From: an uncultured Planctomycetia bacterium
GTDB lineage: Bacteria > Omnitrophota > Gorgyraeia > 1-14-0-20-64-10
Direction of reading: 5' to 3'
NCBI GenBank assembly: GCA_964373715.1
Contig: CAYJVR010000002.1
Coordinates: 182,937-246,936, forward strand
Length of the DNA stretch: 64,000 bases
Positions 13,580 through 52,322 of this stretch are shown here, one piece after another (the stretch's first letter is position 1; every line of letters starts with the position of its first letter). The notes beneath the pieces were generated by a model. The model was given only the letters and a program-made list of their open reading frames with translations, searched no databases and was not told where the DNA came from. The position numbers and the translations under genes are program-made.

Positions 13580-14509
13580 ATGAGATGCGGGGAGATTCAA
13601 GAGAGGTTGTCCGGTTGGATGGATGGGGAACTTTCCGGGGCGGAATCCTCGGAGGTGAAACTCCATCTCGGGGATTGCCCGGAGTGCAGCCGTATTCACG
13701 AATCGGTGAAACAGGCCTCGCACGCCTGCACGGCGATGAAAAGCCCCGTCCCCGCTGTTCCCGGAAATCTGCTGGAAAAGGTCCGGAACGTCCCGCAGTG
13801 GAAGATCCGGGCGGTTGTTTTCCGCCGCCCGCTTATTGCCGGGGCGCTGATTGGTTTGGCGGCCGGGGTTGTGAACATGGTTTCTTATCTGTCGGATCCT
13901 GTTCCGGTGGCGATGACCTACCGGTCGGGAGACAAGGTTGCCAGCGTGGTGAACACGCTGGTTCTTTTCCCGGGGATGAAAATTTCCACGCAGGAGAATG
14001 AGGAGGTGGAAGTCAGCATTCCCTCGGGGGCCGGATGGATCCGGCTCCACAGCCAGAGTTCCCTTTCTGTGCGGCGCGCCGGCATCCGGAAAATCGGCGG
14101 CCTACATGCTGTGGAACTAGAGCTTCCGAAAGGGGCGGTGTCGCTTTGGTTCCGTCCGGGGATCTTTCCTCACGACCTCAGGCTTGCCACTTCGCAGGCG
14201 ATGATCTGGCTGACCGGAACATGGGTTGAGGTCCATGCGATAGCCGGTTTGACCCGTGTCCGTGTTTTAAACGGGTTTGCCAGCGTCCGGAACCGGGCGA
14301 CCGGCGAACGGATGATTGTTCCGGCCGGAAATTGTGCCGAAATAGGGAGAAGGACATTCGCCCTCCGGAAGATTGTGGTAAAGAATCCGGAAACAGTTCC
14401 ATCTCTGGTAACAGGGCCGACAACAGGGCAAGGTGATCAGCAGGAAAAACCCCCGGGAGAAAATGGGCCAAACCCCGATTCTCCCCTTTGGTATGAGGTG
14501 GAAAAATGA
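13580..14509 (+). CDS. Anti-sigma factor (zf-HC2 N-terminal domain, a TM helix, FecR-like C-terminal domain)
   Basis: CGEIQERLSGWMDGELSGAESSEVKLHLGDCPECSRIHE is the RskA/ChrR-type zinc-finger anti-sigma motif. A TM helix RPLIAGALIGLAAGVV follows. The gene sits directly after the ECF sigma gene. Confidence 0.7.
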   Translation: MRCGEIQERLSGWMDGELSGAESSEVKLHLGDCPECSRIHESVKQASHACTAMKSPVPAVPGNLLEKVRNVPQWKIRAVVFRRPLIAGALIGLAAGVVNMVSYLSDPVPVAMTYRSGDKVASVVNTLVLFPGMKISTQENEEVEVSIPSGAGWIRLHSQSSLSVRRAGIRKIGGLHAVELELPKGAVSLWFRPGIFPHDLRLATSQAMIWLTGTWVEVHAIAGLTRVRVLNGFASVRNRATGERMIVPAGNCAEIGRRTFALRKIVVKNPETVPSLVTGPTTGQGDQQEKPPGENGPNPDSPLWYEVEK

Positions 14510-19047: not shown

Positions 19048-19148
19048 TTCAGAACGCCACTGGAGTCGTTGGGTTCGGAGCCGTCTAGAAGCGTCTTGAC
19101 GGACTGTTGGCCGAAAGAGTAAACTTTCATCCAGGTAAAGGAGGTTTT

Positions 19149-20924: not shown

Positions 20925-20940
20925 AGGGAGGGGACAAACC

Positions 20941-21135
20941 ATGAATTCTCTGTGCGCGACGAACTGGCTGTTGCTGGCTCTGCTGACGGCTCTTCTGCTC
21001 GACGTCGGGCTGAGGCTCGCAGACCGGCCGGCGGTCGCGGAAACCTTCCAGCTGGATCACTGTATCACGGCCAAGCCGAACGATAAACCGGAGGCCTACC
21101 TGCATACCGCCCACCACACTTACACCGGTCCCTGA
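20941..21135 (+). CDS. Small (64 aa) predicted membrane/secreted peptide
   Basis: Strong GGGAGGGG RBS 7 nt upstream of the ATG. Hydrophobic N-terminus NWLLLALLTALLLDVGL. It lies between convergent pilB and pilT. The call rests on the ORF and RBS only. Confidence 0.3.
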   Translation: MNSLCATNWLLLALLTALLLDVGLRLADRPAVAETFQLDHCITAKPNDKPEAYLHTAHHTYTGP

Positions 21136-21138
21136 AGT

Positions 21139-37542: not shown

Positions 37543-40500
37543 ATGTTAAAGAAGAAAGCCTCGAGCAGAGCTATTTTTTTTGCCCGCTTATTGAGCTCTT
37601 TTTTGATCGTGGAGCTGGCGGTAGGGGGAACCCCTGCCCATGCTCTGCGTCCGATCAACGCTCCTGAATCGGGCACTGCCTTAGATCTTCAGGGAGCTCT
37701 CCGTACAGGCCTCCCGGATCTCTCTCCTTTGAACGCCGGCCTCGAAGAGGTCCCTCCCGGTTGGTATTCTCAAGCTGTTTTCTACAGCATGGAGATGGAC
37801 CGGTTTGTTGATGGGTTGACGCCGGATGCTCTCACCCGGGATGAGATGGAGGTGGTCAGGGGTTTCCTCGAGAACCGGGAGACTGCTCTGCTGGAGGGGG
37901 TCAGCCAGATCATGAGCGACAAGAACTCGGCGATCCACTTTGTCCCGGAAATGACCGAGTCGGAGATTCTCCGGGAGTACCAGAACGACCCGGACCGCCG
38001 CCAGCAGACGCCGTACTACTGGGGTACGGCGCGTGTTCCGTTCGTTGACCTGAAAAAGATGGTCGGAACCTTCAACCTGCCGAAGGATTTCCCAGACCAG
38101 TTCAAGGACCTCGTGTATAGGGCGCTCCGCCGCCGTCATCCTCTGGGAAAGTCGCCTCTCTACGGCGGAGTTCGCGGAGGGGCTCTCGGCGCCCGCATCG
38201 TGATGATGCACCAGGCCCCTGACCAGTTTGCGCTCAGCGTGCGGGAGGCGATTGACGAGGCCCGGGACCGGATCAAAGAGCTTTATCCGGAGGTTTTTGT
38301 GGGAAACATGAGTGTCCAAGGCCAGGCCGAAGTGCCGCGTTCGCAACTGTTCGACCAGATCATCGCCAAGCTCCGCTTTTACTCTTCCCATGTGTCAATC
38401 ACTCTGCCTGACCCTCCGGAATCCCCATCGATCAGCCTCGCATTCGACGGGATGATGCGTGTGCCGCTCAAAGATGTTCCGCGGACGCTTGAACGGGGTG
38501 AGGTTGAGGCGATTGACGAGGGCAGGAAGCCCCCTTATCTGAATCCAGACCAGCTTGCCCTCCTCGCTGAGGACCCCGCCACAGCGGCCGAATTAGTCCA
38601 ACAGTATCTCGACTGGGACCGGTACTTCAGCGAGCGCCGCGGCAAGTACTCGACCGCCGCTCGGTACTGGCTCCGGCAGGTGGCGCTGCTCCGGGCCAGG
38701 GGCGAGGAGAACGACCGGGCCCGCGCCATAGCGAGTTTCTTCATCGAGAGACTGATGTCCGACCGGTGGGCCAGTTTGAACGCGCGGCTTCCACTGTCAG
38801 AGGTGATCTACTTCCCGGATATTGATCCGGAGTTGACCCAGGCTATCCGCCAGGTGATGCCGCCCGAGATGCTCCCGGCCCCGGAGCACCCGGAACGGAT
38901 CCTGGTCATTGACGACGCGTTCATCAGCGTATTGATCGAGGGGTTCCGCAGCATGATAAAGAAGAGTCCGACCCGGTCGCAGCAGCAGATGCAGTCCATG
39001 CGGATGCTCGGCCGGATTTTCAAGATCATGCTCGAAGGGTACAGGGGGACCGTCCCCTTGGCGAACTACCACACCGCGCGCAATCCGCGGCTCCGCCACG
39101 CGATCGACCGGGTGTACAACCTGGACCGGCCGGAGGGGACCTCCTCGAAGCGGATGATGGACGCCTGGGAACATCTGGACCAGCGCCGGCTGCTGCTGGA
39201 CCGGGCCGTCCGTGAGAAGAGCGATCAGGTCCAACCGCTCCGGGACCAGATGCAGGTTGCGCTTGATCAGTTCAAGGAGGAGTACCGGCGTTACCGGCTC
39301 GACGCCTACGAAGCGATGATGCTCGCGCCCCGGGATCCCCGCGTGGAGGAGGTTGTGAAGCTGTACTGGGTTGACCAGTACGCCGAAGCCGACCGGTCGG
39401 GACATATCGCCTCCCTCCGGGGACATCTCACCGGCGAGAGGGACCGTCTGATCGCCCGCCGGGACCAGATTGTTGCAGGCACTCCCGCAACGGTCGAGCT
39501 CGATTCCGCTATCGGCCGCTTGAACCGGCTCATCGGGCTCTTGAATCCCGGCGCGTTTATCGTCAAGCGCCCGGAAGGGGACGAGATCGCGCCCGTGATG
39601 CGGCACTCGAACGGTCTGTTCGTGATGGGGTTAACCGAGCGGAACAAGGGATGGTCGCACGACCAGACTTATCCGCCCGGCCCGACCGACGAGATCTATT
39701 CGGCGATTACGCTAAGGTCTCTTGACGACGCGGTGAAAAAATATTCCGAATCGGGCGGCGACACCCGCCGGGCAATGGTCGGCGCGCTGGCGAACACGAA
39801 CGCGGTTATCCTGCAGGTGGAGCCGCGCGACTTCCCGACTTACGAGAAACATCTGGAAAACGGACTGGTTGTCCGTATGGAGTCGTACGCCCCCCCCGGG
39901 TTGCCCGCCCCGACCAGCTTGCGCAGCCCCCGCAGCCGGAACTGGTACCGCTGGCTGGCAGACCGGGACGCCAAGGGCAGCCCATGGCAGGAGGACCCGG
40001 CCCGGACCGGCCCCGCCGAGAGGCACCCCGACCTCCGGCGTTTCCGGGACAAGTTGTCGGTTGCCGCGATCTACAACGAGGTTTTGCTGTCGCCCGATCT
40101 TTTGCCGGAGATGTTCGCCCAGCTTGAGTTGGCGACCGACATCCAGAAGAAACGGCCTGACCTGGTGTCCCGGGTCGTAGAGATCCATGAGATTGTCAAG
40201 GAGCCCGAGAGCGTGTGGGATCTCCCGCCCGACGCGTTGGCCGGACTCGAAGAACTTGAGGCCGGTTTTCAGAGGATGGAGACGGCCGGCGACGTGTCCG
40301 GGCTGGAAGAGACGCCCCTTCAACAGAAGATTTTTCTCAGGCTGCGCACTCAGAGCCGGAGGATTTCCGAGCGCCTTCAAGGCCACCCTTTTCCTATAAA
40401 AATTCTGTTGGGCCCCGGTCAGATGCCGGTTTACCGGGCGGAGAATGACGGTCTGCCTATGAACCGGATGACATTGTGGCTGTTCAGCCGCGGCGTCGAG

Positions 40501-43500
40501 AACCTGATCCTGCGCGAGGCGGGCCCGGAGTTTCAGCAGGAATTTTCCGATGCGGTGCGGGAGTTCGGCGCCAACCAGCCTTTTACGATGTACGACGGTC
40601 AGACGGTCCTGACGATGGCCAGCACCGATGAGGTCAGGCAGTTGGTTGAGGGAGACGCGCGGCTTAACCCTCAGCAAAGAGCGAGAGTCATTTTACTCAA
40701 AGAGTTTATCGACCGCAGCCGGGGGTTGAACCCGGACGCCGTTGTTGAAGCCGCCGTTAACTTTCTGTTTGATGATAATTACCGAAACCTGTTGGAGAAC
40801 GTCAATCACGTCCGGACCAACCCGGGCAAGAATCCCCGGTTGGCCGGCGGCAAACCGCCGGTCCGGTCGGCCGGCGAGATTGATTCGCAGAGAGGGGTCG
40901 AGATCTGGCTGGTCAAAGAGGGCAACGATACGATGGTTGCCCAGGTCTCCGTTTTCTTGAAGGACGGCACTCGCTCCTTGTTTGTGGTCAACGTTGCAAA
41001 GGATTTAACCGACGCGGGAAGAATCTTGACGGAAGTTGTTCAGGTGCTCGACGCGAACTACGAGCGGCATCCGGGCTACAGCATGGAGACCTTCCAGTTC
41101 GGCGAAGGGACGGCTTTCGTGGGAACCAGAGAACAGAAGATCCCGCTTTTCACCGGAGAATGGCTTGAGGGATACGAAGAGTCCCATCTGTTTGCGGTCC
41201 CCGAAGATTCCGGCCAGCCGGCCCGCTTCCATGTCTGGTGGGGCCAGAACTCCCGTTTGAGCGAGCCTCTTTCAGAGACCGAATCGGACAGCGTTTGGTC
41301 GGCGTTGATAGAAGCCCAAACCGTTCTCTCCTGGATCGAAGGTCGCGGCAAAAATAGGAGGGCCATATTGAGCCAGCCCAACGTGAATGCCGGGGATATG
41401 CCGGTGATCAAGCCGGGAAACGGCTGGAAGGGGGTCCTCATCTGGGACCGCCGGATGGTACCGCCCGAGAAATTCGACCTTGGCCAGATGGTTTTGGAAG
41501 GGCTTCTTAAACAGGTCGTCGATTCGCGCGGCGGCCAGATTCGCAGGATTTGGTGGGGAAAGCCGGAGAAGGCAGTGGAGGCGATCCGCCGCGGTTTCGT
41601 GGAAGCGGCCCGCTACCAGGCGGAGAAAGCGGGGAAGGACCAAAGACGGGCCATGCGGCAGGCTCAGGCGAGCTTGAACCGGATTTTCGAGAGGGTTTAT
41701 GAGGGGACCTTACAGGCATGGGCCAACGATCCCAGCCTCTATCCTGGGTGGAGCGATTTCACGGCTTCGGAAAAACAGCGTTTTTCGGAAATCGTTGCGC
41801 AGGCGCGCCATGTGGTCGGCGTTGTTATCGGAGAAGAGGAGCCTCAATCGCTGGAAGAATCGGGTCTTGAGGAAGGGTACGCAGCGAAGTCGGACCGGCT
41901 GGAGCGGTTGATTCCTGAGGTTGAACAGCTCATGGCGGCCGAAACCAAAAGCGGCCTCCTTCGCAGGACCATCGGGGAGATCCGGAGCGATTCGTATTTT
42001 GTCGAGGGGCAGATCGCTTACATTCCCGTGCGCCAGGGAGCGCTCTACGTGATCGGCGATAACCACGGCGATTACAAGAGCCTGCGCAAGGCGATCCAGC
42101 GGAGTGGCTATGATCCGGAGGATCCGGACCGGCCCCATCTTGTTTTTGTCGGCGATTACGGGGATGTCGGGAAGAAAAGCTTGGATGTGGTTCTTCAGGT
42201 GTTGGAAATGAAGCTGGCCGATCCGGAGCGGATCACCCTGCTGGCGGGCAATCACGACCGGGACCGGCCCACCCGCGGGTCGGAAGACGTCCAAAAGTGG
42301 ATCGCCGCCGGCAACGAACCGTCCCGCTGGTTTTTCTGGGAGTTGGAGGAGAAGATTGGCCCTCAGCGGGGTTCCGCCCTGTTTGACCGGCTTACCCGGT
42401 TGGCCAGAAGTTTGCCGATGCTGGTTGTGACGGCCAACGGGATCGCCGTAACGCACGCAAGTCCCCCCTCCGCGCTTGATCCTTTGTACAAGCCGGAAGA
42501 GGGGCTCCTGGGGATCGCGGGCAATCAGAAACTGCTGGACCGGTTTGCCTTCAACCTGATCCGATATCCGGATGCTGAAGCGGATGAGCAGAACACCACC
42601 TTTCACCGGATGCATCCCCGTTTGGAGATGGGACATTGGATCGGCCGGCAGGGGATCGACACTTTCCTGAACAGCATCGGGGCGACGGTCTTGGTTCGGG
42701 GGCACAACCGGACCGGGCCCGTTCTGCCGACCCACCAGGGGAAGGTGCTGACCGTCATCACCACCGACTGGCGTTCCAACGACGGCGGCTATCCGAAGCA
42801 GGACAGAGGGGTTGCCCGGATCGCCAAGTTTGACTTGGCCGCCTCCTATGCTCAGATACCGTCCGAAGTCATCCTCTCCGTTTGGGACGCCGCAGGCCGG
42901 CTGCCGCGGCAGTCGCCGTCGGGTCTCGAGGAGGTGTCGGAGCGGGTACCGTTTGAGTTAGGACAGCTTGCCGAACGGAGCCGGTCGGATCTTCCGTTGA
43001 TTGTTGATCTGCAGACCCTTCCGCCGGGACTCCTGCGCGATTTCATCGAATGGCTTAACCAGATCGAGGCGGATGATGTGGTGGTGATCGGCGGGATGCT
43101 GCGCGATACGCTTCTCGGATATGAGCCGGGCGACGTTGATTTTGCCGTCAAGGTAGAGTTGCCCGCTGACCTACAGCAGTCTTGGCAGGAGGATGTGCGG
43201 CGGCTGACGCCGATTGCTTTGAATGAGAAGTACAAGCTCCAATATCGAGCCGACAAGGTGCTTTACCAAGTCGCAAAGAAAATGCAGATCTCTCCTAGCC
43301 GGCTACTCCGGCTGAGAGAACGGTTTCAGGAGCAGGGTTTGGAGTTCAGCTTCAGCGCGGTGGTTGCGGGAAATTTCTTGATTGATTTCGGACGGCAGGC
43401 AACCTTTACAGTTAATCAGATTGCGATGGACCGGAAGGGCCGTGTTTATCTGCCTGAATCGCGGAGAGGGTTCGAGGATCTTTTCAACCGGTTGATCGTT

Positions 43501-45306
43501 GTGCCGCGCAGTTCCGGCAGCGGGCCAATTGCGGGAATCGGATTAAAAACCGCTCTCCAAGGGGTTCGGTACCATCATCAATATGGAATGACAATCGATC
43601 CGGCCACTTATCAGCTTTTCCGACGGGTTGCGGAGCGAGGACAGTCTGAGCCACCGTCCCGTATCCGGAGGATTTGGTGGACGGTCAAGGGAACGATCCG
43701 CGAACTCGGCAGGGCTGTCGCTCATCCGTCTCTTGCGGGGGCCCATCTGCGTTCCGCTCGCCGGTTGGCCGCTCGTATGCTTTGGGATTCTTGGATGCAC
43801 GATGCCCCCGGCCGATGGTTGGAAAAAGTGCTCGAATCGGTTCCCGATCCGGTACCGGTGTTGCGGGAATTGGCCGAGCTGGGTTTGCTGGACGTATTGC
43901 GGATTTCCGGTGCGGATGTGGACGGGATCATTGACCGTCGAATGGGCGGTCCGCCGGCCTCAGCCGGGTTGGAGGAGTTGACCGTGGAAAAGGTGGATCA
44001 GTGGATTCATCTCCTCGAACAGGGGTGGCCGGATCAGCGATGGATCACTTTAGGGAATGCCGGGTGGGCTCTCTTCCTGCGTTCCGCCCCGCCGGAGGCG
44101 ATGGTCCTGCGGGCCGACCGGTTGGTTTCTGCGGTCGTCTCCAATCTGGCCCCGCCCAAGCAATCCTGGGGGTCTTTTCTCTTCGCAGAACAGAGGGATG
44201 TCCGGGAGGACGCGCAGAAGTTGGTGAATACCTTTCTGCGAGTTCCCCGGTTTCGCAAGGCGCTTGCTGCCGACCCGGATCGGGTGGTTTCCCATACGCT
44301 CCGTAATTTTGTTTTACGCAAAGGTTTTCTGGGATTCAACGCCGCGGGGTCGATTCGTCTCATGGTTGGTTTGGAGCCTTTTCAGGAATCGTTGGCCGGC
44401 CGGATCCCCTCCTTGGTTGACCTTCTAGAGGGGGCCGATCCGGTCATCGCTTTAAGGGCCCGTGAGATCCTGATCGATTTTTTGGAACAACCCGGTTTCC
44501 GCCCGTTTCTGGCGGATGAGGTCTCGACGCTGGTGTGGTTCCTCCGGAAAGGGAATCTCTCGGCCGGCGTTCATTCGGGAGAAATCCTGAAGGCCATGGC
44601 TTCCATCGAGACTTTCCGCCCGGCGCTGGCTCGCGAGGCCCCTTCGCTCAGGGAGCTGACGGAAAGCGAAGGCGAGTACCTTTCGCCACGCGCTTACGCG
44701 AGGGATATCCTGGAACTGCTGGGCCCGACGGGGATCTGGTTTGGGAACGGCATCCAGGTGCTCGATCGACGGCCGGTTTTGCCGAGCGGCAGCATCCGTT
44801 TTGGATTCTCCGCCGGTTTGGAAGAGTTGGGGTCCCTCCGCCAGCGGATGCCGGAGTGGCTGCGGGGGATTATCTCCCCGGACCGTCTGCCGGACCTGGT
44901 CCGCGGGGTGCATGAGATCTCCAATGCCTCTGACAAGGTGGCCGTGCTGATCCATCCGGGGCTCTTTCCGGCCGATGCCGACCCGTTTGATCTCGAGGTG
45001 AACCTGGTCGGGCTTTCGGGCAATGTGCGGGCTTCTTTGGGCCTGCGTGAAGGGACTGACCTGAGAATTGGTCTTTTGACCGAAGAGAACTTGAAAACCT
45101 ACAACGGGTACCGGATCGTCCAGGTGTTGAGGGATCCGGCCGCCGCGCACCGGGAAGCGCTGCCTCTGGAGGCGGTCCCTCTCGTGGTGGCCGAGGCTCT
45201 CTCTGTGCGGGGAAACACCTTCTGGGTGGATGTGACCCCCTATCTCGCGGTGAGTGAGTTGACGATGCCGGAGGTTCTCTCCACGCTCACCGATCTCTTC
45301 GCGTGA
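37543..45306 (+). CDS. Giant (2587 aa) multi-domain protein: N-terminal hydrophobic leader, about 1450 aa of unassigned sequence, a calcineurin-like (PPP-family) metallophosphoesterase domain, a poly(A)-polymerase/CCA-type nucleotidyltransferase head domain, and about 600 aa of unassigned C-terminus
   Basis: Uninterrupted 7.76-kb ORF with an AT-rich promoter region upstream and a terminator hairpin downstream. PPP motifs at about 42040..42260: VIGDNHGD (GDxHG), VFVGDYGDVG (GDxxDRG-like) and LLAGNHD (GNHE-like). NTase head at about 43084..43150: VVIGGMLRDTLLGYEPGDVDFAV, which matches the GGxxRDxxLGxxxxDxD pattern of PcnB and CCA-adding enzymes. Six [S/A]GLEE motifs lie at predicted domain boundaries. 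Confidence 0.7.
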   Translation: MLKKKASSRAIFFARLLSSFLIVELAVGGTPAHALRPINAPESGTALDLQGALRTGLPDLSPLNAGLEEVPPGWYSQAVFYSMEMDRFVDGLTPDALTRDEMEVVRGFLENRETALLEGVSQIMSDKNSAIHFVPEMTESEILREYQNDPDRRQQTPYYWGTARVPFVDLKKMVGTFNLPKDFPDQFKDLVYRALRRRHPLGKSPLYGGVRGGALGARIVMMHQAPDQFALSVREAIDEARDRIKELYPEVFVGNMSVQGQAEVPRSQLFDQIIAKLRFYSSHVSITLPDPPESPSISLAFDGMMRVPLKDVPRTLERGEVEAIDEGRKPPYLNPDQLALLAEDPATAAELVQQYLDWDRYFSERRGKYSTAARYWLRQVALLRARGEENDRARAIASFFIERLMSDRWASLNARLPLSEVIYFPDIDPELTQAIRQVMPPEMLPAPEHPERILVIDDAFISVLIEGFRSMIKKSPTRSQQQMQSMRMLGRIFKIMLEGYRGTVPLANYHTARNPRLRHAIDRVYNLDRPEGTSSKRMMDAWEHLDQRRLLLDRAVREKSDQVQPLRDQMQVALDQFKEEYRRYRLDAYEAMMLAPRDPRVEEVVKLYWVDQYAEADRSGHIASLRGHLTGERDRLIARRDQIVAGTPATVELDSAIGRLNRLIGLLNPGAFIVKRPEGDEIAPVMRHSNGLFVMGLTERNKGWSHDQTYPPGPTDEIYSAITLRSLDDAVKKYSESGGDTRRAMVGALANTNAVILQVEPRDFPTYEKHLENGLVVRMESYAPPGLPAPTSLRSPRSRNWYRWLADRDAKGSPWQEDPARTGPAERHPDLRRFRDKLSVAAIYNEVLLSPDLLPEMFAQLELATDIQKKRPDLVSRVVEIHEIVKEPESVWDLPPDALAGLEELEAGFQRMETAGDVSGLEETPLQQKIFLRLRTQSRRISERLQGHPFPIKILLGPGQMPVYRAENDGLPMNRMTLWLFSRGVENLILREAGPEFQQEFSDAVREFGANQPFTMYDGQTVLTMASTDEVRQLVEGDARLNPQQRARVILLKEFIDRSRGLNPDAVVEAAVNFLFDDNYRNLLENVNHVRTNPGKNPRLAGGKPPVRSAGEIDSQRGVEIWLVKEGNDTMVAQVSVFLKDGTRSLFVVNVAKDLTDAGRILTEVVQVLDANYERHPGYSMETFQFGEGTAFVGTREQKIPLFTGEWLEGYEESHLFAVPEDSGQPARFHVWWGQNSRLSEPLSETESDSVWSALIEAQTVLSWIEGRGKNRRAILSQPNVNAGDMPVIKPGNGWKGVLIWDRRMVPPEKFDLGQMVLEGLLKQVVDSRGGQIRRIWWGKPEKAVEAIRRGFVEAARYQAEKAGKDQRRAMRQAQASLNRIFERVYEGTLQAWANDPSLYPGWSDFTASEKQRFSEIVAQARHVVGVVIGEEEPQSLEESGLEEGYAAKSDRLERLIPEVEQLMAAETKSGLLRRTIGEIRSDSYFVEGQIAYIPVRQGALYVIGDNHGDYKSLRKAIQRSGYDPEDPDRPHLVFVGDYGDVGKKSLDVVLQVLEMKLADPERITLLAGNHDRDRPTRGSEDVQKWIAAGNEPSRWFFWELEEKIGPQRGSALFDRLTRLARSLPMLVVTANGIAVTHASPPSALDPLYKPEEGLLGIAGNQKLLDRFAFNLIRYPDAEADEQNTTFHRMHPRLEMGHWIGRQGIDTFLNSIGATVLVRGHNRTGPVLPTHQGKVLTVITTDWRSNDGGYPKQDRGVARIAKFDLAASYAQIPSEVILSVWDAAGRLPRQSPSGLEEVSERVPFELGQLAERSRSDLPLIVDLQTLPPGLLRDFIEWLNQIEADDVVVIGGMLRDTLLGYEPGDVDFAVKVELPADLQQSWQEDVRRLTPIALNEKYKLQYRADKVLYQVAKKMQISPSRLLRLRERFQEQGLEFSFSAVVAGNFLIDFGRQATFTVNQIAMDRKGRVYLPESRRGFEDLFNRLIVVPRSSGSGPIAGIGLKTALQGVRYHHQYGMTIDPATYQLFRRVAERGQSEPPSRIRRIWWTVKGTIRELGRAVAHPSLAGAHLRSARRLAARMLWDSWMHDAPGRWLEKVLESVPDPVPVLRELAELGLLDVLRISGADVDGIIDRRMGGPPASAGLEELTVEKVDQWIHLLEQGWPDQRWITLGNAGWALFLRSAPPEAMVLRADRLVSAVVSNLAPPKQSWGSFLFAEQRDVREDAQKLVNTFLRVPRFRKALAADPDRVVSHTLRNFVLRKGFLGFNAAGSIRLMVGLEPFQESLAGRIPSLVDLLEGADPVIALRAREILIDFLEQPGFRPFLADEVSTLVWFLRKGNLSAGVHSGEILKAMASIETFRPALAREAPSLRELTESEGEYLSPRAYARDILELLGPTGIWFGNGIQVLDRRPVLPSGSIRFGFSAGLEELGSLRQRMPEWLRGIISPDRLPDLVRGVHEISNASDKVAVLIHPGLFPADADPFDLEVNLVGLSGNVRASLGLREGTDLRIGLLTEENLKTYNGYRIVQVLRDPAAAHREALPLEAVPLVVAEALSVRGNTFWVDVTPYLAVSELTMPEVLSTLTDLFA

Positions 45307-45314
45307 CCGTCAAT

Positions 45315-45337
45315 CGGCCAGACCGGCCGCTTTTTTT
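45315..45337 (+). terminator. Rho-independent terminator after the giant ORF
   Basis: cggcc-agacc-ggccg is a hairpin with a 5-bp GC stem. It is followed by cttttttt, 9 nt after the stop codon. Confidence 0.5.
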
Positions 45338-45374
45338 ATGCCTTTATATTTGTAGATTATGATAATTTAATGCT

Positions 45375-45734
45375 ATGAAGCTAAAATTCTTCCTCAGGGG
45401 CCGCTTGGACAGCCTATTTACCCGGCAGGAACAGCTGGCGCTGGGTTTTGTTTTAGCGGTTGGGTTTTTCGGTTTGCTGTTGGGCGCTTCGGAATCCCGC
45501 CGGCTGAAGGAGTTCCTGCCGCCGGAGAGAGCGGTCCGCCTCTCTGTGCGGGTGAATTCGGCTTTGGCGGAAGAGCTGGCGGCGCTGCCGGGAATCGGTC
45601 CTGTGCTGGCGGGCCGGATCGTTAAAGAGAGGCAGATCCGGGGGGCGTTCCTTACGCTGCGCGATCTGGCGAGGGTCAAAGGGATGTCGTCGAAGGTTCT
45701 CTCGAGGATCGAGGGGCTCGTTCGCTTCGATTGA
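45375..45734 (+). CDS. comEA: Competence protein ComEA (helix-hairpin-helix DNA-binding)
   Basis: N-terminal TM segment. The C-terminal VNSALAEELAALPGIGPVLAGRIVKERQIRGAFLTLRDLARVKGMSSKVLSRIEGL is the classic ComEA HhH signature. Confidence 0.75.
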   Translation: MKLKFFLRGRLDSLFTRQEQLALGFVLAVGFFGLLLGASESRRLKEFLPPERAVRLSVRVNSALAEELAALPGIGPVLAGRIVKERQIRGAFLTLRDLARVKGMSSKVLSRIEGLVRFD

Positions 45735-47179
45735 CCTCCATGCGGGCCCCTCTTGCGGCTGCGGCGGCCTCTTTCGCCGCGGGGATTCTCTGCGGTTGGT
45801 GGCTGCATCTTCCGTTGTTTGCAGTTCTGTTCTCTTCGGGGGTTGTCTTCTTGTTTGCCGTCCGGCCGGGGAGACGGCGCTCGCTGTTCCTGCTGATTCT
45901 TTTCACCTTGCTAGGGGCGGGCAGGGCTGCTCTCGATGAAGAGTTTTCCAGGAGTGCCGTCTTCCGGTTTTTGACCGAAGAGGCCAGGCCGGTGACATGC
46001 GAAGGGGTTATTGTCAGCGGTATTTCTTCCGGCCGTCCGGCGGGAAAATTTCTCAGCCGCCGCGGACGGCTGCGCATTATTTCTCTGTCGGGGCCGGCGG
46101 GGACCGTTCCTGTCTCGGGAGTCCTGCTCGTCCATCTGCCGGGAGTGGGCCCTCCCCTGGAGTATGGCGACCGGGTTCTTTTAACGGGGATGGTTCGCCG
46201 GCCACGCACTCTTTCCTCAAAAGGGTTTCGGGAGGCCGACTGGTTCTGGTCGGAGGGTCTTTCCGGCCTCTTGAATATTTCCGATCCTGCCGCTGTCCGC
46301 CGTCTCAGTACCGAGCCCGGGGTATGGGTCCGGTACTGCCGCCTGATCGGCGCCTGGCGGGCGGCACTCAAGGCTCGGGGGCGGCTTTTGATGGAAACCG
46401 GTGACGCGGTTTATCTGGAGGCTCTTTTGCTTGGCGAAGCGGGCGGAATCCCCAGGAGGGATTGGGATCTGTTCCGCGCCACCGGAACGGTCCATATCCT
46501 CGTGGTCAGCGGATTGCACGTCAGCCTTATCGCTTTTCTGATTTTGGTTCTCGCTTCTCTTTTTCGTGTTTCGCGCATGGTGAGGTTTCTTATGATGGTT
46601 TTCGGGTTGGTGGTCTACTGTACATTGACCGGCAGCGAGCCCTCCATTCTGCGCGCCACCCTCATGGGGCTGCTCACCTGTCTTGGGGCGATTTTTGGCT
46701 CCGGAGCGTTTGCTCTCAACGGGCTCGGGTTGTCAGGGTTTTTGATTCTGTGGGCCGATCCGAGGGCGTTGGCAAGCGTCAGCTTTCAGCTCTCTTTTTC
46801 GGCCGTGTTGGGTTTGTTGGTGATCGCCCCGTGGTTTGAAAAGAAGGCCTACGGTTTTCTCTTGGGGGAGGGGAAGCCGGGAGTTTTTTGGGAGGTTTTC
46901 TTAAAGGGATTGTCCGCTTCGGTGGCGGCGTGGGCCGCCACCGCGCCGTTGATTTTCTGGCATTTCAAAATGGTTTCTCCGGTCGCAGTTGCCGCCAATA
47001 TGGTTCTTGTCCCTTGGTCCACGGTGCTGATTTTTATCGGATGTGCAGTCTACCTTTTCGGCTCCGTAAGTTTAATCATTGCAGCCCCATTCGCAGCGGT
47101 GTTTTCATTAAATATTAAAAATTTTATTGTTTTAACGATTTTAATACAAAAGGTATTTAAGGCAGTTTTTGGTGTATAA
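45731..47179 (+). CDS. comEC: DNA internalisation competence protein ComEC/Rec2, membrane core only, lacking the C-terminal metallo-beta-lactamase domain
   Basis: DUF4131-like N-terminus plus the competence domain (...DWDLFRATGTVHILVVSGLHVSLIAFLIL...). It has multiple TM helices. The last ~25 codons lie in about 25%-GC DNA. Confidence 0.7.
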   Translation: MTSMRAPLAAAAASFAAGILCGWWLHLPLFAVLFSSGVVFLFAVRPGRRRSLFLLILFTLLGAGRAALDEEFSRSAVFRFLTEEARPVTCEGVIVSGISSGRPAGKFLSRRGRLRIISLSGPAGTVPVSGVLLVHLPGVGPPLEYGDRVLLTGMVRRPRTLSSKGFREADWFWSEGLSGLLNISDPAAVRRLSTEPGVWVRYCRLIGAWRAALKARGRLLMETGDAVYLEALLLGEAGGIPRRDWDLFRATGTVHILVVSGLHVSLIAFLILVLASLFRVSRMVRFLMMVFGLVVYCTLTGSEPSILRATLMGLLTCLGAIFGSGAFALNGLGLSGFLILWADPRALASVSFQLSFSAVLGLLVIAPWFEKKAYGFLLGEGKPGVFWEVFLKGLSASVAAWAATAPLIFWHFKMVSPVAVAANMVLVPWSTVLIFIGCAVYLFGSVSLIIAAPFAAVFSLNIKNFIVLTILIQKVFKAVFGV

Positions 47180-47405
47180 AATTATTAGTTTTAAAGTATT
47201 GATTTAATTAACTAAATATGGTATATATTTCTTTAGGAATAAAACCGGTCTCTAGAAAAGGACAATAATACCCTCCAATCTTGGTAGGGGATACCCCTTT
47301 GCGGGCTTGGAATATAAAAACCTTGTAATGAGTCCTATTCTGGAGTATAAAGGAGTGCAAGACACTCCGTGTGTTTTGCAGTCTACGGCAGAGTGAAAGG
47401 AGTAG

Positions 47406-47825
47406 ATGCTCGCGATGGGGGCCTCAGTAGGCACATCCAAGCCTCTCGTTGAGCGGCGCCGGTATAGGCGACTGAACTCCCATGCTCCAGTTCAATTCCG
47501 TAACGTTTTAAAACCTCAAGAGCTATTCGACGGAACCCTTTCCAAAGATATAAGCGCTGGCGGTCTTTGCATGACCACCGAAAATTTTATTTCCCCGGAA
47601 TCAAGGCTTGTTCTTCTGGTCTCCCTTCCCGGAACTTTAAAATCGATTCGGCTCATCTGTCAGGTGACCTGGACTCAGCAGCAGCGATTTGCCGATGGCT
47701 ATGAATGCGGGGTTGAGTTTATCGAAATCAACCCGGAGGACCGCCAGGAGATAGATTCTTTCGTCCAACGCGCTCGAGAGGTCTCTTCGGCCACCTACAC
47801 GCAGTCCAAGCGCCTGTCCGCGTAG
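47406..47825 (+). CDS. Stand-alone PilZ-domain c-di-GMP receptor
   Basis: RRRYRR (RxxxR) followed by DISAGG (DxSxxG), then a beta-barrel-type C-terminal region. AAAGGAG RBS. Confidence 0.6.
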   Translation: MLAMGASVGTSKPLVERRRYRRLNSHAPVQFRNVLKPQELFDGTLSKDISAGGLCMTTENFISPESRLVLLVSLPGTLKSIRLICQVTWTQQQRFADGYECGVEFIEINPEDRQEIDSFVQRAREVSSATYTQSKRLSA

Positions 47826-47924
47826 TTTTCTGTTTTATCCGCCGGCTCTCTCCAAGAATGGTTTACGATTTCTCCACCCTGTGGTATCGTGAATAAACCA
47901 ACCAAGACGTTTAGGTGAACTCCA

Positions 47925-48887
47925 ATGAAAATCCGGACTCTTATATCCTTCGTGCTTTTTACGGCACTCGTTGTTCCTGAAGCCAACGCAGCCTGGGTGT
48001 GGACGCCCCAGAGCCGCCGGTGGGTGAATCCGAAATATGCCGCTAAAGACAGCCCCCAAGCCCAGATGGAATGGGCTCAGGGATTTTTTGAGCAAAAGGA
48101 TTATCCTCGGGCGGCGAAAGAGTATCTGCGCCTTGTTCAGGCCTATTCGAGGTCGGAGTTGGCGCCTGAAGCCCAGTACCTGGCCGGGCTTTCGTACGAA
48201 TTGGCCGATAATCCGGAGGAAGCCTTCGGCGCCTACAAAAAACTGGTCGAAATCTATCCGTTCAGCAAGCGGTTTAAAGATGCGATTGAAAGGGAATTCT
48301 TCATCGCGGAGAGCCTGCGCGGCGGCAAGCGATTGAAGTTGGTCGGCCCGGTCAGCTTGCCGTCTCTCGATAAAGCGGTTGAAATCTACCAGCATATTTT
48401 GGAGCAGGCCCCTTACAGCGATTACGGCGATAAAGCGCAGTTCCAGCTGGGGGAATGTTATATCCTCCAGAAACGTTTTGAGGAAGCCAACCGCACTTTC
48501 CAGAGGATGCTGACCGATTATCCGGCCTCTGCGCTCGTGGATGAGGCCAAATACCGGGTCGCCTTCTGCGCCCGGCAGCTTTCCTTGAAGCCGAGCTACG
48601 ACCAGTCGGCGACCGATGAGGCGATTGAATGGTATGAAGAGTTCATCAAGAGCCATCCCGAAAGTTCCCTGCTTTCGCAGGCCCAGGAATCCCTCCGGCA
48701 GTTGAAGGGATTCAAGGCCCAGGGCCTGGCCAAAGTCGCGCAATTTTATGAGAAGCAGCATAAGCCGGCCAGCGCGGCGATCTATTACCGGCAGATTGTC
48801 GAGAATTATCCGGACAGTTCGGAGGCGGCCGAGGCCGCCGGCAGGCTTACCGAATTTGAGCGGGAAGGGATTGTTAAAAAGCAGTAG
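47925..48887 (+). CDS. Secreted TPR-repeat protein (BamD/YfiO-like family)
   Basis: Signal peptide MKIRTLISFVLFTALVVPEANA (a signal peptidase I site with no lipobox cysteine). The TPR-like repeats resemble those of the outer-membrane assembly factor. The missing Cys argues against a canonical BamD. Confidence 0.45.
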   Translation: MKIRTLISFVLFTALVVPEANAAWVWTPQSRRWVNPKYAAKDSPQAQMEWAQGFFEQKDYPRAAKEYLRLVQAYSRSELAPEAQYLAGLSYELADNPEEAFGAYKKLVEIYPFSKRFKDAIEREFFIAESLRGGKRLKLVGPVSLPSLDKAVEIYQHILEQAPYSDYGDKAQFQLGECYILQKRFEEANRTFQRMLTDYPASALVDEAKYRVAFCARQLSLKPSYDQSATDEAIEWYEEFIKSHPESSLLSQAQESLRQLKGFKAQGLAKVAQFYEKQHKPASAAIYYRQIVENYPDSSEAAEAAGRLTEFEREGIVKKQ

Positions 48888-48905
48888 TCTGTACTAAGGG
48901 GAAAG

Positions 48906-49475
48906 ATGAAACAGCGTCAGCAGCCCGGTTTTCTCTCCACAGGGTTACTCCTTGCCGCGTGCACGCTGTCCTTGCTGTCGGGCGGCTGCGGATACTCCGC
49001 CACCCGCCTTCTGCCGGCCGAATACCGGACGATTTACATTGAGCCTTTTGAGAACAAGATTGCCATCAACCGCGATGTCACGGGGCGGGAAGGGTTCCAG
49101 ACGAACCTCCCTTTGATTGAAGAGCAAGTGACCCGTTCGGTGATCGACCGTTTCTTTTTCGACGGGAACTTGCGGGTGACGAACAAGATGGAACAGGCGG
49201 ATCTCATCATGACCGGGACGTTAAGGGATTTCTTCCGCCAGCAGGTCCGCCGCACAGCCAATGACAGCACGACCGAGGAGTACAGGTTAAACCTTGTCGC
49301 CTCCCTATCGGTCCGCAAGCAGGATGGGAGCATTATTGTTGATGAGCCGAATCTTGTCGGGGACGCCACCTATTTCGTGACGGGCATTTCCGCCACCAGC
49401 GAAACGACGGCCGTCATCAACCTCATTGCTGATTTTTCCCGCCGGGTCGTGGAGCGGGTCGTTGAAAACTGGTAA
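48906..49475 (+). CDS. lptE: LPS-assembly lipoprotein LptE-like
   Basis: Lipobox LLSGG|C. 189 aa. It sits immediately upstream of holA, the conserved leuS-lptE-holA neighbourhood of didermic bacteria. Confidence 0.55.
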   Translation: MKQRQQPGFLSTGLLLAACTLSLLSGGCGYSATRLLPAEYRTIYIEPFENKIAINRDVTGREGFQTNLPLIEEQVTRSVIDRFFFDGNLRVTNKMEQADLIMTGTLRDFFRQQVRRTANDSTTEEYRLNLVASLSVRKQDGSIIVDEPNLVGDATYFVTGISATSETTAVINLIADFSRRVVERVVENW

Positions 49476-50409
49476 CCCGTCCTCTTCGCCTCCTCCGGTC
49501 CTGCTCTGCGCCGGTCCCGAGAAATGGCTCAAGGCCCAGGCGATCGAGCGCCTTAAATCCCTCTGTATTCTGCCCGGTTTCGAAGAGATGGATATGGCCA
49601 CCTTCGATCAGACGCAGGAGTATGACCAGGCCATCATGGAGGCCGTAAAGACGGCCCCATTCGGGTCTCCTTATCGGCTTGTCATCATCAGCGGCCTCGA
49701 TGAGGCAAGCATTGACTCATTGCCATGGCTCGTCCATTACCTGAATGGTCCGAATCCCAAAGCGAGCGTCGTCCTGTGCGCGGAAAAAATCTCCGAAGAG
49801 ATCCGTTCTTTAGCGCAGAAAAAACCGGACGTTGTCCATCTCCTCTGGTGCCACCCTTTGAAAGGGAGGGATCTCCGGGACTGGGTTGTGAACCAAGCCC
49901 GTCTGCTGGACAAGACCCTTGATTCCGCCGCCGCTCACCTGTTGATCGCCCGGTGCGGCGACCAGCTTCAGTCCCTCTTTCTGGCTGTCGAGGCTCTTTC
50001 GCTTTTGGTGGGTTCGGCCGCGAAGATTACAGAGGCCGATGTGGAGGCCATTATCTCTCCGTCGGTGCGGGAAACGGTTTTTGATATTCTGGACCGGGCG
50101 GCGGCCGGGCAGCCGCAGAAGGCGATAGAACTTCTCCATCAGGCGCTGGCGCAGGGACAATTGACCGTGGAACAGTTGATGGGGGCGCTAGGCTGGTATT
50201 ACCGGATGGTGTGGAAGAACAAGACAGGTATGGGATCCTCCTGGGGTTCTGCCGACAGGCAGACCGCCTTATCCCGGCTCAAACGCTGGCCGCAGCAGAA
50301 GCTGAAAGCCGCTTTAGACGAGGTGCTGGAGGCAGACACCCGCTTGAAGCTGGGCTATCCCTCTTCTGAACTGTTGGCGGATCAGCTCTTGCTGAAGTTG
50401 GGGGCTTGA
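49426..50409 (+). CDS. holA: DNA polymerase III delta subunit
   Basis: PVLLCAGPEKWLKAQAIERLK...YRLVIISGLDEA... has a delta-subunit N-terminal pattern and lies in the conserved position after lptE. The start is uncertain (the track start overlaps lptE by 50 nt). Confidence 0.65.
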   Translation: MLIFPAGSWSGSLKTGNPSSSPPPVLLCAGPEKWLKAQAIERLKSLCILPGFEEMDMATFDQTQEYDQAIMEAVKTAPFGSPYRLVIISGLDEASIDSLPWLVHYLNGPNPKASVVLCAEKISEEIRSLAQKKPDVVHLLWCHPLKGRDLRDWVVNQARLLDKTLDSAAAHLLIARCGDQLQSLFLAVEALSLLVGSAAKITEADVEAIISPSVRETVFDILDRAAAGQPQKAIELLHQALAQGQLTVEQLMGALGWYYRMVWKNKTGMGSSWGSADRQTALSRLKRWPQQKLKAALDEVLEADTRLKLGYPSSELLADQLLLKLGA

Positions 50410-50414
50410 GCGCT

Positions 50415-50681
50415 TTAAGACTGGACCTTGGCGAGGCGCAGGGCGAACCGGCTTTTCTTTCTCGAAGCGGTGTTTTTGTGGAGGATGCTTTTAGTGACAC
50501 CCTGGTCCAACCGCTTGACGAGAGACTGGTAAAGCTCTTTGGCCTCATTTGCCTGGTCCGGTTTGAGGGCGGCGAGGAACTGCTTAGTCAGAGTTTTGAG
50601 TCCAGACTTGAATTCCAGGTTCCGCAGGCGGAGTTTTTTGTCCGCCCGAACTCTTTTTACAGCTGAATGAATGTTCGGCAT
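50415..50681 (-). CDS. rpsT: 30S ribosomal protein S20
   Basis: MPNIHSAVKRVRADKKLRLRNLEFKSGLKTLTKQFLAAL...SILHKNTASRKKSRFALRLAKV matches the S20 family throughout. The internal ATG at 50681 is preferred over the track start. Confidence 0.8.
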   Translation of the reverse strand: MPNIHSAVKRVRADKKLRLRNLEFKSGLKTLTKQFLAALKPDQANEAKELYQSLVKRLDQGVTKSILHKNTASRKKSRFALRLAKVQS

Positions 50682-50732
50682 AGCGGTTGAAACTAGCATA
50701 ATCGGCGTCGGATTGTCAACCTTGTTTTCCCT

Positions 50733-52322
50733 TTGGAGAGGTTCAGCACAGTGAAAAGCCACGCCCGACTCTATCAGGCCGCTGGCATCATGGGCTTGTT
50801 CACCGCCGTCAGCCGCGTGCTCGGTTTCATTCGGGACTGCCTGATCGCCTCCTTCTACGGCACCTCCATTACCGCCCAGGCTTTTGTCGTCGCGTTCCGC
50901 ATACCGAACCTGTTCAGGGACCTGGCCGGCGAGGGGGCCGCCAACAGCGCTTTCGTTCCCGTTTTAAGCCGGACCCGCGAACTCGAAGGGGAACGGTCAT
51001 GGGTGGATCTGGCCGACGCCATGTGGTGCCGTATCTTTCTCGGGTTTCTGTTTGTTTCGCTGGTTGGCATCGTTGCGGCCCCCGCGCTGGTGACGGTGGT
51101 CGCCCCCGGGTTCCGGGGGGAGCCCGAGTTGATGCGGCACGCTGTTTTGCTGACGAGGATACTGTTCCCGTTCATCGGGCTCGTGGGCATCGCCGCCTTC
51201 TTCATGGGGCTGCTGAACAGCATCCACCATTTCGCGCTGCCGAGCCTCGGCCCGGCGATCCTTAACGTCTGCATGATTGCCGGCATCTACCTATGGAGGC
51301 CGGATGCGCTGGGCCTCTCCTGTGGCGTGATCGTCGGCGGGGTCCTCCAGCTGGCCGTGCAGGTGCCTCTGCTGCGCAGCGCCGGGGTGAAGCTCCATTT
51401 CCGGTGGAAGCGGCATCCGGGGGTCGCCCAGATCCGGCGCCTGCTTGTGCCGCGCCTGCTCGGGACCGGCGTTTACCAGCTCGGCGTTTTGGTGGACACG
51501 GTTTTCGCCTCTTTCCGGACCCTCGTTGGGGAAGGGGGGATCGCCGCCCTTTATTTTGCGTTCCGGTTCCTGCAGCTGCCGATGGCGCTGTTCGGGATAT
51601 CGATGGCGCAGGCGGCCCTTCCGGCGATGGCCAAGCAGGTTGCTTCCGGCGATCTGGATTCGGTGAAAACAACCTGTTTCATGGCGCTGAAATCGGCCCT
51701 TTTTATCGCGATCCCGGCCAGCGCCGGTTTAATCTTCCTGGGCCGCCCGATCATCCAGACGATGCTTGAAAGAGGGGCTTTCACCGCCGAGGCCACCGCG
51801 ACGACGGTGGCAACCCTGCAGTGGTACGCGGTCGGCCTGGCCTCGATGTGCGCGGTGAAGGTGCTGGCCAACACGCTGTACGCGTTTCATGACACCTGGA
51901 CGCCGGTCCGCTCCGCCGCTATGGCGCTGGTCTCGAACATCGTTTTGAACGGCCTTCTCGTCTGGTCGATGAAACTGCCGGGCCTCGCGCTGGCCACATC
52001 GGTCAGCTCAACGGTCAACAGCGTCCAGCTCTATTACGCGGTCCGAAAGAGGGTGGGGCCGTTCGACCACCGGATGCGCTATTGGATCGGGCGCGTGGTT
52101 GTTGCCTCGGTCGCGATGGGGGCGGTTTCCCTCGGGTTTTGGCATTGCGGAACAGGGCCGCTGGGGCTGAAGAACCCTGCTGCGGTTTTCGGGTGGCTTC
52201 TCGCCACGATCGGGGTCGGATTGGTCAGTTTCTTTCTCTTCTGCTTTCTGTTGCGTGTTGAAGAGTCACGGCAGGTGATCGAATGGCTGAAACGCACAAC
52301 GACCGGCTTAAAGAGAAATTAG
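50733..52322 (+). CDS. murJ: Lipid II flippase MurJ (MviN)
   Basis: ITAQAFVVAFRIPNLFRDLAGEGAANSAFVPVLS is the hallmark MurJ N-terminal motif. It is a 14-TM protein of 529 aa. Confidence 0.85.
   Translation: MERFSTVKSHARLYQAAGIMGLFTAVSRVLGFIRDCLIASFYGTSITAQAFVVAFRIPNLFRDLAGEGAANSAFVPVLSRTRELEGERSWVDLADAMWCRIFLGFLFVSLVGIVAAPALVTVVAPGFRGEPELMRHAVLLTRILFPFIGLVGIAAFFMGLLNSIHHFALPSLGPAILNVCMIAGIYLWRPDALGLSCGVIVGGVLQLAVQVPLLRSAGVKLHFRWKRHPGVAQIRRLLVPRLLGTGVYQLGVLVDTVFASFRTLVGEGGIAALYFAFRFLQLPMALFGISMAQAALPAMAKQVASGDLDSVKTTCFMALKSALFIAIPASAGLIFLGRPIIQTMLERGAFTAEATATTVATLQWYAVGLASMCAVKVLANTLYAFHDTWTPVRSAAMALVSNIVLNGLLVWSMKLPGLALATSVSSTVNSVQLYYAVRKRVGPFDHRMRYWIGRVVVASVAMGAVSLGFWHCGTGPLGLKNPAAVFGWLLATIGVGLVSFFLFCFLLRVEESRQVIEWLKRTTTGLKRN

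Follow-up and report, generated by a model that had tools for sequence, protein, structure and literature searches.

A short GLEE peptide at the junctions of exchangeable cassettes in a family of large, putatively exported Omnitrophota proteins

We analysed a stretch of 64,000 nucleotides (nt) from an uncultured Planctomycetia bacterium placed by GTDB in the Omnitrophota (assembly GCA_964373715.1, contig CAYJVR010000002.1, positions 182,937 to 246,936 of the forward strand), hereafter called the window, in which two large genes on the plus strand, giant 1 and giant 2, encode proteins with a recurrent peptide of the form [A/S/T]-G-[L/M]-E-E. Giant 1 (37543-45306; 2587 amino acids (aa)) consists of a leader, six cargo segments delimited by GLEE and a C-terminal domain, here termed type 1. 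As read from the sequence, its Sec-type signal peptide (37543-37644; aa 1-34) ends in TPAHA and is followed by LR, giving a conserved ALR, and the leader ends 31 residues past ALR at the first AGLEE (37735-37749). The first cargo segment, of 835 aa, is closed by AGLEE at 40240-40254. SGLEE at 40297-40311 opens a module, M5, that is common to the proteins P0020 and P0025, and SGLEE at 41860-41874 opens module M6, which contains a calcineurin-like phosphoesterase domain (Metallophos; 42046-42705; aa 1502-1721, Pfam) whose catalytic residues are invariant in four aligned modules. SGLEE at 42919-42933 marks the end of the Metallophos module and the start of a nucleotidyltransferase module with a PolyA_pol head (43084-43497; aa 1848-1985, Pfam). 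AGLEE at 43963-43977 then opens a 283-aa module without a Pfam match, and the type-1 C-terminal domain (44812-45303), of alpha/beta fold, itself begins with AGLEE (44812-44826). The existing gene call of giant 1 is 20 residues short (2567 aa). The genes downstream of giant 1 are those for ComEA/ComEC.

Giant 2 (54107-58807; 1566 aa) comprises a leader, a helix-turn-helix (HTH) array, a methyltransferase-ROK cassette, a GHKL module and a C-terminal domain of a second type (type 2). Its Sec-type signal peptide (54107-54190; aa 1-28), also read from the sequence, ends in GSSYA before LR, the leader closes with SGLEE at 54275-54289, and the XRE-type HTH array follows at 54338-55249 (aa 78-381, Pfam). 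The two DAGLEE motifs of giant 2 stand at the ends of near-identical linkers, copy 1 at 55792-55840 (T-EETGTQPPSDAGLEE) and copy 2, between the ROK and GHKL modules, at 57637-57685 (T-EETGTQPLPDAGLEE). The initial annotation, made from the letters of the window, had described these as 45-nt repeats (55796-55840 and 57641-57685) identical at 42 of 45 positions and had placed their motifs at the boundaries between HTH array and methyltransferase and between ROK and GHKL. We confirmed the repeats, and Pfam bore out the placement. The similarity extends to 49 nt (46/49 identical) and stops at the last base of GLEE; flanking the methyltransferase-ROK cassette as they do, the two linkers look like the trace of one recent exchange at the junction. 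The type-2 domain (58322-58804) begins with AGMEE (58322-58336) and carries MGMEE near its C-terminus (58766-58780). The NCBI gene model of giant 2 (P0001, 1465 aa) begins at Met102 and is without the signal peptide, ALR and the first SGLEE. The start at 54107 (54107-54409 being the affected part of the window) is backed by Logan gene calls and by P0002, an 82%-identical orthologue in which the upstream 100 residues are kept at about 82% identity. Downstream of giant 2 lie the genes for PrfB/SecA. Identical copies of the giant 2 gene are present in the sequencing runs ERR3478686 and ERR4904390-92.

Both giants look exported. Each N-terminus has a basic n-region, a hydrophobic core, an A-x-A site and Leu-Arg, and the first motif stands about 30 residues on. 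The signal peptides, the position of the motif after the signal peptide and at the opening of the C-terminal domain, and the family-wide Omnitrophota architecture described below had all escaped the initial annotation.

The motif is strongly concentrated in the two giants. Giant 1 contains seven GLEE (Gly codons starting at 37738, 40243, 40300, 41863, 42922, 43966 and 44815); the six listed at first were all found at the places given, and the seventh, ALAGLEE at 40243, 19 residues before VSGLEE, had been omitted. Giant 2 contains three, ASGLEE (54278) and two DAGLEE (55829 and 57674), besides the variants TAGMEE (58325), which opens the C-terminal domain, and MGMEE (58769). Across all six frames of the window GLEE occurs ten times, every time inside giants 1 and 2, and the only other matches to G[LMIV]EE are three GIEE/GVEE in short frames; the remaining long open reading frames contain no G[LM]EE in 11,068 residues. 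Composition predicts 0.12 GLEE in giant 1 (7 observed, Poisson P ≈ 7e-11) and 0.10 in giant 2 (3 observed, P ≈ 2e-4), and in 2000 shuffles of each giant there were never more than two. GLEE is also the most frequent tetrapeptide of the two proteins. The enrichment is far above chance in both giants, and the shuffles and the six-frame scan rule out chance or composition as the origin of the motif.

Word-based searches returned almost no homologues of either giant; the one distant match of giant 1, P0006, covers the last 160 residues only. An exhaustive profile search with the type-1 C-terminal domain, by comparison, yielded 61 cluster representatives, 43 of them with E <1e-10. The proteins so recovered range from 150 to 6251 aa, and all of them have the domain at their very C-terminal end. 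Those genome contigs that encode it belong to metagenome-assembled genomes (MAGs) named Candidatus Omnitrophota bacterium or 'uncultured Planctomycetia'. Full-length members have a common plan: a signal peptide ending ...A[LF]ALR, the first [AST]G[LM]EE 4-40 residues on, further motifs between very different cargo regions, and a C-terminal domain opening at a motif (GLEERMPEWL). [AT]LR after a Sec-type signal peptide is the conserved leader element of full-length members. A hydrophobic h-region with x-A-L-R is matched strictly in 24 of the 43 members of at least 300 aa, and among those failing the strict match at least two (P0007 and P0012) are N-terminally truncated gene calls. The cargo includes phosphoesterase, nucleotidyltransferase, methyltransferase-ROK, GHKL, HTH arrays, a sigma-70-like region, Fic, GNAT, TPR and WD40. 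Over 62 family proteins (60,973 residues) we counted 149 G[LM]EE, with 3.9 expected, and up to eight motif copies per protein; no tetrapeptide is commoner than GLEE and no pentapeptide commoner than AGLEE. In some members Gln, Val, Ile or Ala replaces the Leu (GQEE, GVEE, GAEE). Both giants show all three family features, namely signal peptide plus [AT]LR, motif-led cargo and a motif-opened C-terminal domain.

The type-2 domain of giant 2 has separate relatives, all preceded by [AST]G[LAM]EE. One of them, P0071 (212 aa), has no cargo at all and consists of a signal peptide, ALR, SGLEE, a 30-residue spacer, AGMEE and the type-2 domain. By BLASTP giants 1 and 2 share no homology beyond the motif, and hhalign found none between the two C-terminal domain types (probability 1.8%, with shallow and deeper profiles alike); what the profile comparison aligns are units of GLEE plus an amphipathic helix. 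On these profile comparisons, the family appears to contain at least two unrelated conserved C-terminal domain types. No Pfam or NCBIfam model matches the leader, the motif or either C-terminal domain, and literature searches for the motif (AGLEE, SGLEE, 'GLEE motif') returned nothing relevant; all of these elements are new to Pfam, NCBIfam and the searched literature. The largest members, P0045, P0051, P0058 and P0063 (1407-6251 aa), contain internal repeats of about 600-1900 residues, WD40 propellers and very few GLEE, so not every module boundary of the family uses the motif.

The type-1 domain was modelled with high confidence (mean predicted local distance difference test (pLDDT) 95.2, predicted template modelling score 0.90) as an alpha/beta fold of four strands and eight helices. 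Foldseek found no relative of this fold in the PDB (best E 0.6, template modelling score <0.4) or among viral structures, and the type-1 profile matched no PDB sequence. Matches of the type-2 profile to the PDB were to de novo designed TIM barrels only and were discarded as a composition artefact. The alignment of type-1 domains contains no invariant polar residue, and a catalytic triad in this domain was rejected for that reason. In some members GLEE also occurs at two or three conserved positions inside the folded type-1 domain (...ERGGLEERGY..., ...YAGLEEVTLPE...), for example at aa 1877 and 1928 of P0006 and at aa 1626, 1661 and 1719 of P0032; giant 1 has LKTYNGY and LAVSELTMPE there, without GLEE. 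Nearly all family proteins end in Ala, type-1 domains usually in ...LFA and type-2 domains in ...AA, so that the tails consist of a hydrophobic residue plus Ala (...LTDLFA, ...DLSA, ...ARAA, ...LEAA). Such tails recall, we presume, those recognised by PDZ-type tail-specific proteases.

We then related the motif to module boundaries. In 15 family proteins, the two giants and 13 others, no motif falls inside a Pfam envelope, in agreement with the conserved junction that had been suspected. In the giants, Metallophos, the PolyA_pol head, the HTH array, methyltransferase, ROK and HATPase_c_2 lie between motifs and never across one; in giant 1 the Metallophos domain is flanked by motifs at aa 1441 and 1794 and the PolyA_pol head by motifs at aa 1794 and 2142. 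TPR, Metallophos, Fic, GHKL, GNAT, WD40 propellers, HEAT, PALP and ribulose-phosphate epimerase lie likewise between motifs in the 13 further members. Cassettes were defined by cutting all proteins at the motif and clustering the pieces. The Metallophos cassette M6 was recovered in giant 1, P0032 and P0044, and a fourth copy in P0025 by Pfam and alignment. The alignment of these four cassettes shows invariant GLEE at both ends and invariant catalytic residues, and becomes unalignable beyond the motifs; the neighbouring modules differ among the four proteins. M5 is found in giant 1, P0020 and P0025, and other cassettes recur in varying order (P0018, M4-M11-C; P0038, M4-M11-extra-C; P0040, M4-other-C; P0032, M6-M12 versus P0044, M6-Fic-M12). 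In an all-against-all BLAST comparison, 48% of 910 internal homology break-points lay within 10 residues of a motif, as against 6.4% of random positions (maximum 9.5% in 1000 trials); most of these come from C-terminal domain starts, and break-points of cargo cassettes show like behaviour.

Exchange of cassettes at the motif is seen directly at three syntenic loci, at each of which the leader and the C-terminal domain are kept and the cargo is unrelated. At the first, the interval between an MGMT-like gene and prfB, giant 2 and P0002 (82% identical) can be aligned over residues 1-588 and 1406-1566 only. The 817 middle residues of giant 2 (methyltransferase-ROK, DAGLEE, GHKL) stand against an unrelated 306-residue module in P0002, and the exchanged cargo was mapped to 55841-58321. 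Nucleotide homology at this locus begins at 53761, breaks off at 55840 with the last base of GLEE, and restarts 18 nt after AGMEE. The second locus lies downstream of YkuD-AccA-CobA...LeuRS. Here giant 1 resembles P0044 in its leader, Metallophos cassette and C-terminal domain and in nothing else; the LeuRS is 69% identical to that of an Omnitrophota MAG, and the genes on its flanks stand in the same order. The window matches contig CAMTXI010000002.1 of GCA_947085675.1, and we infer an Omnitrophota relative as its source. The third, the interval between an M48 peptidase gene and ORF6N-ComM, was compared in three genomes (proteins L009b, L012a+b and L014a). Leaders can be aligned up to the last Glu of the second GLEE, C-terminal domains can also be aligned, and the cargo is a 600-residue region, a GNAT or an epimerase-PALP-ROK cassette, unrelated to one another. 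The cassette shuffling proposed earlier is thus borne out, orthologues at three conserved loci differing by whole modules swapped exactly at the motif. These comparisons demonstrate that cassettes have been gained, lost and replaced between orthologous loci exactly at this point.

The M48 peptidase gene at the third locus (HtpX-like, 273 aa) is divergent from the genes for GLEE proteins beside it (L012 4152-4991, L009 6742-7536 and L014 4220-5149, all on the minus strand). It could reflect synteny only or be a candidate processing enzyme; we treat it as a lead, because no M48 peptidase gene adjoins giants 1 or 2. A GLEE-family protein at L012 5053-8061 carries, by eye, sigma-70 regions 2-4 and, after them, some six XRE-type HTH repeats akin to those of giant 2. 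It has a Sec-type signal peptide and ends 20 residues past its last GLEE, without a C-terminal domain. An exported sigma factor, if this assignment by eye is right, would be hard to explain.

Several known systems resemble the GLEE proteins in part. In CdiA (VENN) and Rhs (PxxxxDPxGL) proteins, a short motif is the point of module exchange, and the sequence that encodes it is exactly where homology between loci sets in or breaks off (PMC3150448). The GLEE family is similar in that a short conserved peptide sharply bounds variable modules of large exported proteins and homology breaks at the motif. It differs in that CdiA and Rhs proteins contain a single motif, with a single variable toxin at the C-terminus and an immunity gene behind it, whereas GLEE proteins have up to eight motifs, internal variable parts and a conserved C-terminus, and their cargo is regulatory or enzymatic rather than obviously toxic. 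Pfam detected no FHA, YD/RHS repeats, TPS/PAAR or similar trafficking domain in the giants and 13 family proteins, and no immunity-like gene lies beside the giants, whose neighbours are housekeeping genes. MARTX (multifunctional autoprocessing repeats-in-toxin) toxins are giant exported mosaics of effector domains, varied between strains by recombination and released by linker cleavage (PMC6315884, PMC2900308). A mosaic array with a conserved linker motif is apparent in the GLEE sequences. The giants and the same 13 proteins contain neither glycine-rich repeats of the repeats-in-toxin type, which MARTX toxins have at both ends, nor Peptidase_C80 by Pfam; entry is by a Sec-type signal peptide instead of a type I secretion signal, and processing of the giants would need an enzyme acting in trans. 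The cysteine protease domain of MARTX toxins cleaves after Leu, and the linker sites of these toxins, unlike the GLEE junctions, are not a fixed pentapeptide.

With the Omnitrophota giants described before (West-Roberts et al. 2023; 2026 preprint on 176 complete genomes) the GLEE proteins have in common large multi-domain organisation, signal peptides, mixed enzymatic modules and a type II secretion system (T2SS)/pilus cluster nearby. The giants of those papers are larger (10,000 to >100,000 aa), are rich in transmembrane helices and contain C39 or S8 peptidase domains; GLEE, the ALR leader and the C-terminal domains found here are mentioned in neither. West-Roberts et al. (2023) reported T2SS/pilus clusters near Omnitrophota giant genes and C39-like domains as common in the giants, and suspected cleavage, stating that the cleavage points were unknown. 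As in double-glycine leaders, the substrates of C39 peptidases, a cut after Gly with a small residue before it would suit the [A/S/T/G]-G-L sequence. Double-glycine substrates, however, have Gly at -2 and G/A/S at -1, the reverse of the GLEE pattern ([ASTG]-G), and they lack a Sec signal, have one site only, which closes a short leader, and are encoded beside a C39-ABC transporter, whereas GLEE sites are many and internal in proteins with a Sec-type signal. Pfam and NCBIfam found no C39 domain in the giants, and no C39 gene is annotated in the window. Sortase, exosortase and rhombosortase signals, each a single C-terminal element with motif, hydrophobic helix and basic tail, differ as well, GLEE being internal and multi-copy and the terminal domain being a soluble alpha/beta domain with no terminal hydrophobic helix. 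The type IX secretion C-terminal domain is a beta-sandwich of about 80-100 aa, in contrast to the alpha/beta type-1 fold (pLDDT 95), which has no Pfam or NCBIfam match. An anti-phage defence system was also considered and rejected, PADLOC giving nothing for giant 1 and only generic HTH and methyltransferase matches for giant 2.

What is conserved at the junction is the peptide and not the DNA. At the 12 motif sites of the window Gly is encoded by GGC, GGA, GGG and GGT, Leu by CTC, CTG, CTT, CTA and TTG, and Glu by a mixture of GAA and GAG; 47 sites from the window and other loci show an equal spread, with all six Leu codons and frequencies like the background usage of the giants. Among 147 family sites with full flanks, positions -3 to -6 are mildly rich in Pro, Ser and Ala, nothing is conserved downstream, and Gly is preceded by Ala at 91 sites, by Ser at 21, by Thr at 17 and by another Gly at 10. 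Since codons vary freely and flanks are unconserved, the motif is selected at the peptide level and is not a passive footprint of shuffling; something therefore probably reads the peptide. Of the initial proposal of a conserved junction or a shuffling footprint, the junction and the exchange of cassettes stand, and the passive footprint falls, the peptide being kept while synonymous codons are free. Taken together with the module boundaries, it is very likely that [A/S/T]-G-[L/M]-E-E joins exchangeable cassettes and is under selection as a peptide. A nucleic-acid signal, be it a Shine-Dalgarno-like pause, an internal start or a site-specific recombination signal, was suggested by CTG GAG GAG, which includes GGAGG, by a Met or Val two residues past the motif in many C-terminal domains (GLEERMPEWL), and by nucleotide homology between loci stopping exactly at the motif. 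Yet GGAGG is present at 5 of the 12 window sites and absent at the other 7, most motifs have no start codon at a steady distance downstream, no conserved nucleotide word fits a recombinase site, and codons are free at every position; pause, internal start and recombinase site were rejected on this codon variation, and we consider any such signal extremely unlikely. A structural explanation without any reader supposes that Gly-Leu-Glu-Glu caps the first helix of each module, a position in which Glu is favoured, and spreads with the cassettes by recombination. It would account for the motif at the helix start in both the C-terminal domain model and a low-confidence Metallophos model, for the alignment of GLEE plus amphipathic helix between C-terminal domain types, and for the two linkers of giant 2 as recent copies of each other (46/49 nt). 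Ordinary helix caps are degenerate, however, whereas the motif-defined sites have G, E and E without exception and A/S/T/G before G in 139 of 147; the motif is 40-fold over expectation across otherwise unrelated modules while the surrounding linker is unconserved, synonymous codon turnover makes most copies old rather than recent, and no other protein of the window has the motif. We regard a purely structural cap as improbable, and a dedicated trans-acting factor probably reads the motif.

Only the junction and the exchange of cassettes are demonstrated; for what happens at the junction we propose the following. The giants would be exported via Sec, and a factor acting in trans would read the motif after export. 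This factor would most likely be an endopeptidase that cuts the cassettes free as individual proteins; the giants would then be polyproteins, and the conserved in-frame junction could double as a recombination point at which cassettes are swapped without breaking the protein. Processing is favoured by the motif following the signal peptide, like the end of a propeptide, by tandem motifs 12-45 residues apart, whose spacers are too short to fold, and by the many orders and combinations in which modules occur. The combined reading, in which a trans-acting factor, most likely a protease, reads the junction peptide and in-frame cassette exchange is permitted secondarily, seems to us about evenly poised between right and wrong; that the reader is a protease is, taken alone, plausible and somewhat short of probable.

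Several observations weigh against this proposal. The signal peptides were called by eye and hydrophobicity only, and HTH arrays and a sigma-like region make biologically odd exported cargo. Neither giant contains a protease domain by Pfam or NCBIfam, no cognate protease was found, and self-processing by the type-1 domain is unlikely because it has no invariant polar residue. AGLEE starts the first helix of the type-1 model, a conformation atypical of protease sites in extended linkers. The AlphaFold model of the Metallophos module with its flanks (four sequences, pLDDT 45) can be read only as a helix after each motif, and here too the motif stands at the helix start. GLEE inside confidently folded type-1 domains is awkward if every site is cut and fits a structural or docking role better, and domain boundaries without a motif exist, the epimerase, PALP and ROK regions of P0010 lying in one cassette. 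Part of this would be expected if GLEE were a non-cleaved docking peptide, bound by a component of secretion or sorting such as the T2SS/type IV pilus (T4P)-like machinery at 4-21 kb, a periplasmic chaperone or a surface receptor. The many copies might then provide avidity or allow a giant to be threaded module by module through the machinery. The extra copies at surface helix starts inside the folded type-1 domain, the motif as a defined first helix turn in the domain model and the tandem copies near the N-terminus suit docking, as do the near-universal terminal Ala, which suggests recognition of the proteins as whole units, and the T2SS/T4P cluster in the same window, of the kind that West-Roberts et al. 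report near Omnitrophota giant genes. No binding partner was found, though, the neighbours of the giants are housekeeping and not secretion genes, and docking alone leaves the motif at every cassette boundary, including that right after the signal peptide, unexplained. Docking and its avidity or threading variants are accordingly possible but, in our judgement, unlikely.

Carried further, the processing proposal would amount to a polyprotein strategy of the Omnitrophota, in which Sec-exported precursors are cut between Gly and Leu of [AST]GLEE by a dedicated maturation enzyme; we advance this tentatively. The products might comprise phosphatases, nucleotidyltransferases, Fic, GNAT, HTH arrays and even a sigma-like factor, and the released enzymes and regulators might have their place of action beyond the cytoplasm, with the interior of host or prey cells the most plausible site. 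The leader and the C-terminal domains could be handles of a new sorting pathway. Each of these suggestions is speculative, and we would hold none of them as probable.

Elsewhere in the window, a T2SS/T4P-like cluster (4071-22581) encodes PilM, PilN, a secretin, a GspF-like protein, pseudopilins, extracytoplasmic function sigma/anti-sigma pairs and two GspE-like ATPases, one of which has a PilZ domain and lies on the minus strand. Within it, a 1513-aa Laminin_G_3 protein (14506-19047) has no GLEE motif. Of the four 2-kb bins of 44001-52000, a region made up of the end of giant 1 and ComEA/ComEC/BamD-LptE, three have a strongly negative AT skew (-0.21 to -0.27); the skew is near zero elsewhere in the window.

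Omnitrophota are ultra-small, uncultured and probably host-dependent bacteria known for giant genes whose products are hard to dissect. The motif provides a simple rule for splitting such proteins into functional units for structure prediction and annotation, a specific peptide to seek among proteomic termini, and bait with which to fish for its reader, be it enzyme or receptor. Cargo turnover at GLEE loci is much quicker than that of the neighbouring housekeeping genes, as at conflict and effector loci, and the two new C-terminal domains together with the leader could be marks of a new pathway of export or sorting. Were the cargo (HTH arrays, sigma-like region, phosphatase, Fic, methyltransferase) truly exported, it would point to manipulation of a host cell. 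The motif marks the first concrete candidate sites at which such giants might be cut or recognised, and, should the polyprotein reading be true, it would predict cleavage points in the much larger giant proteins of the phylum.

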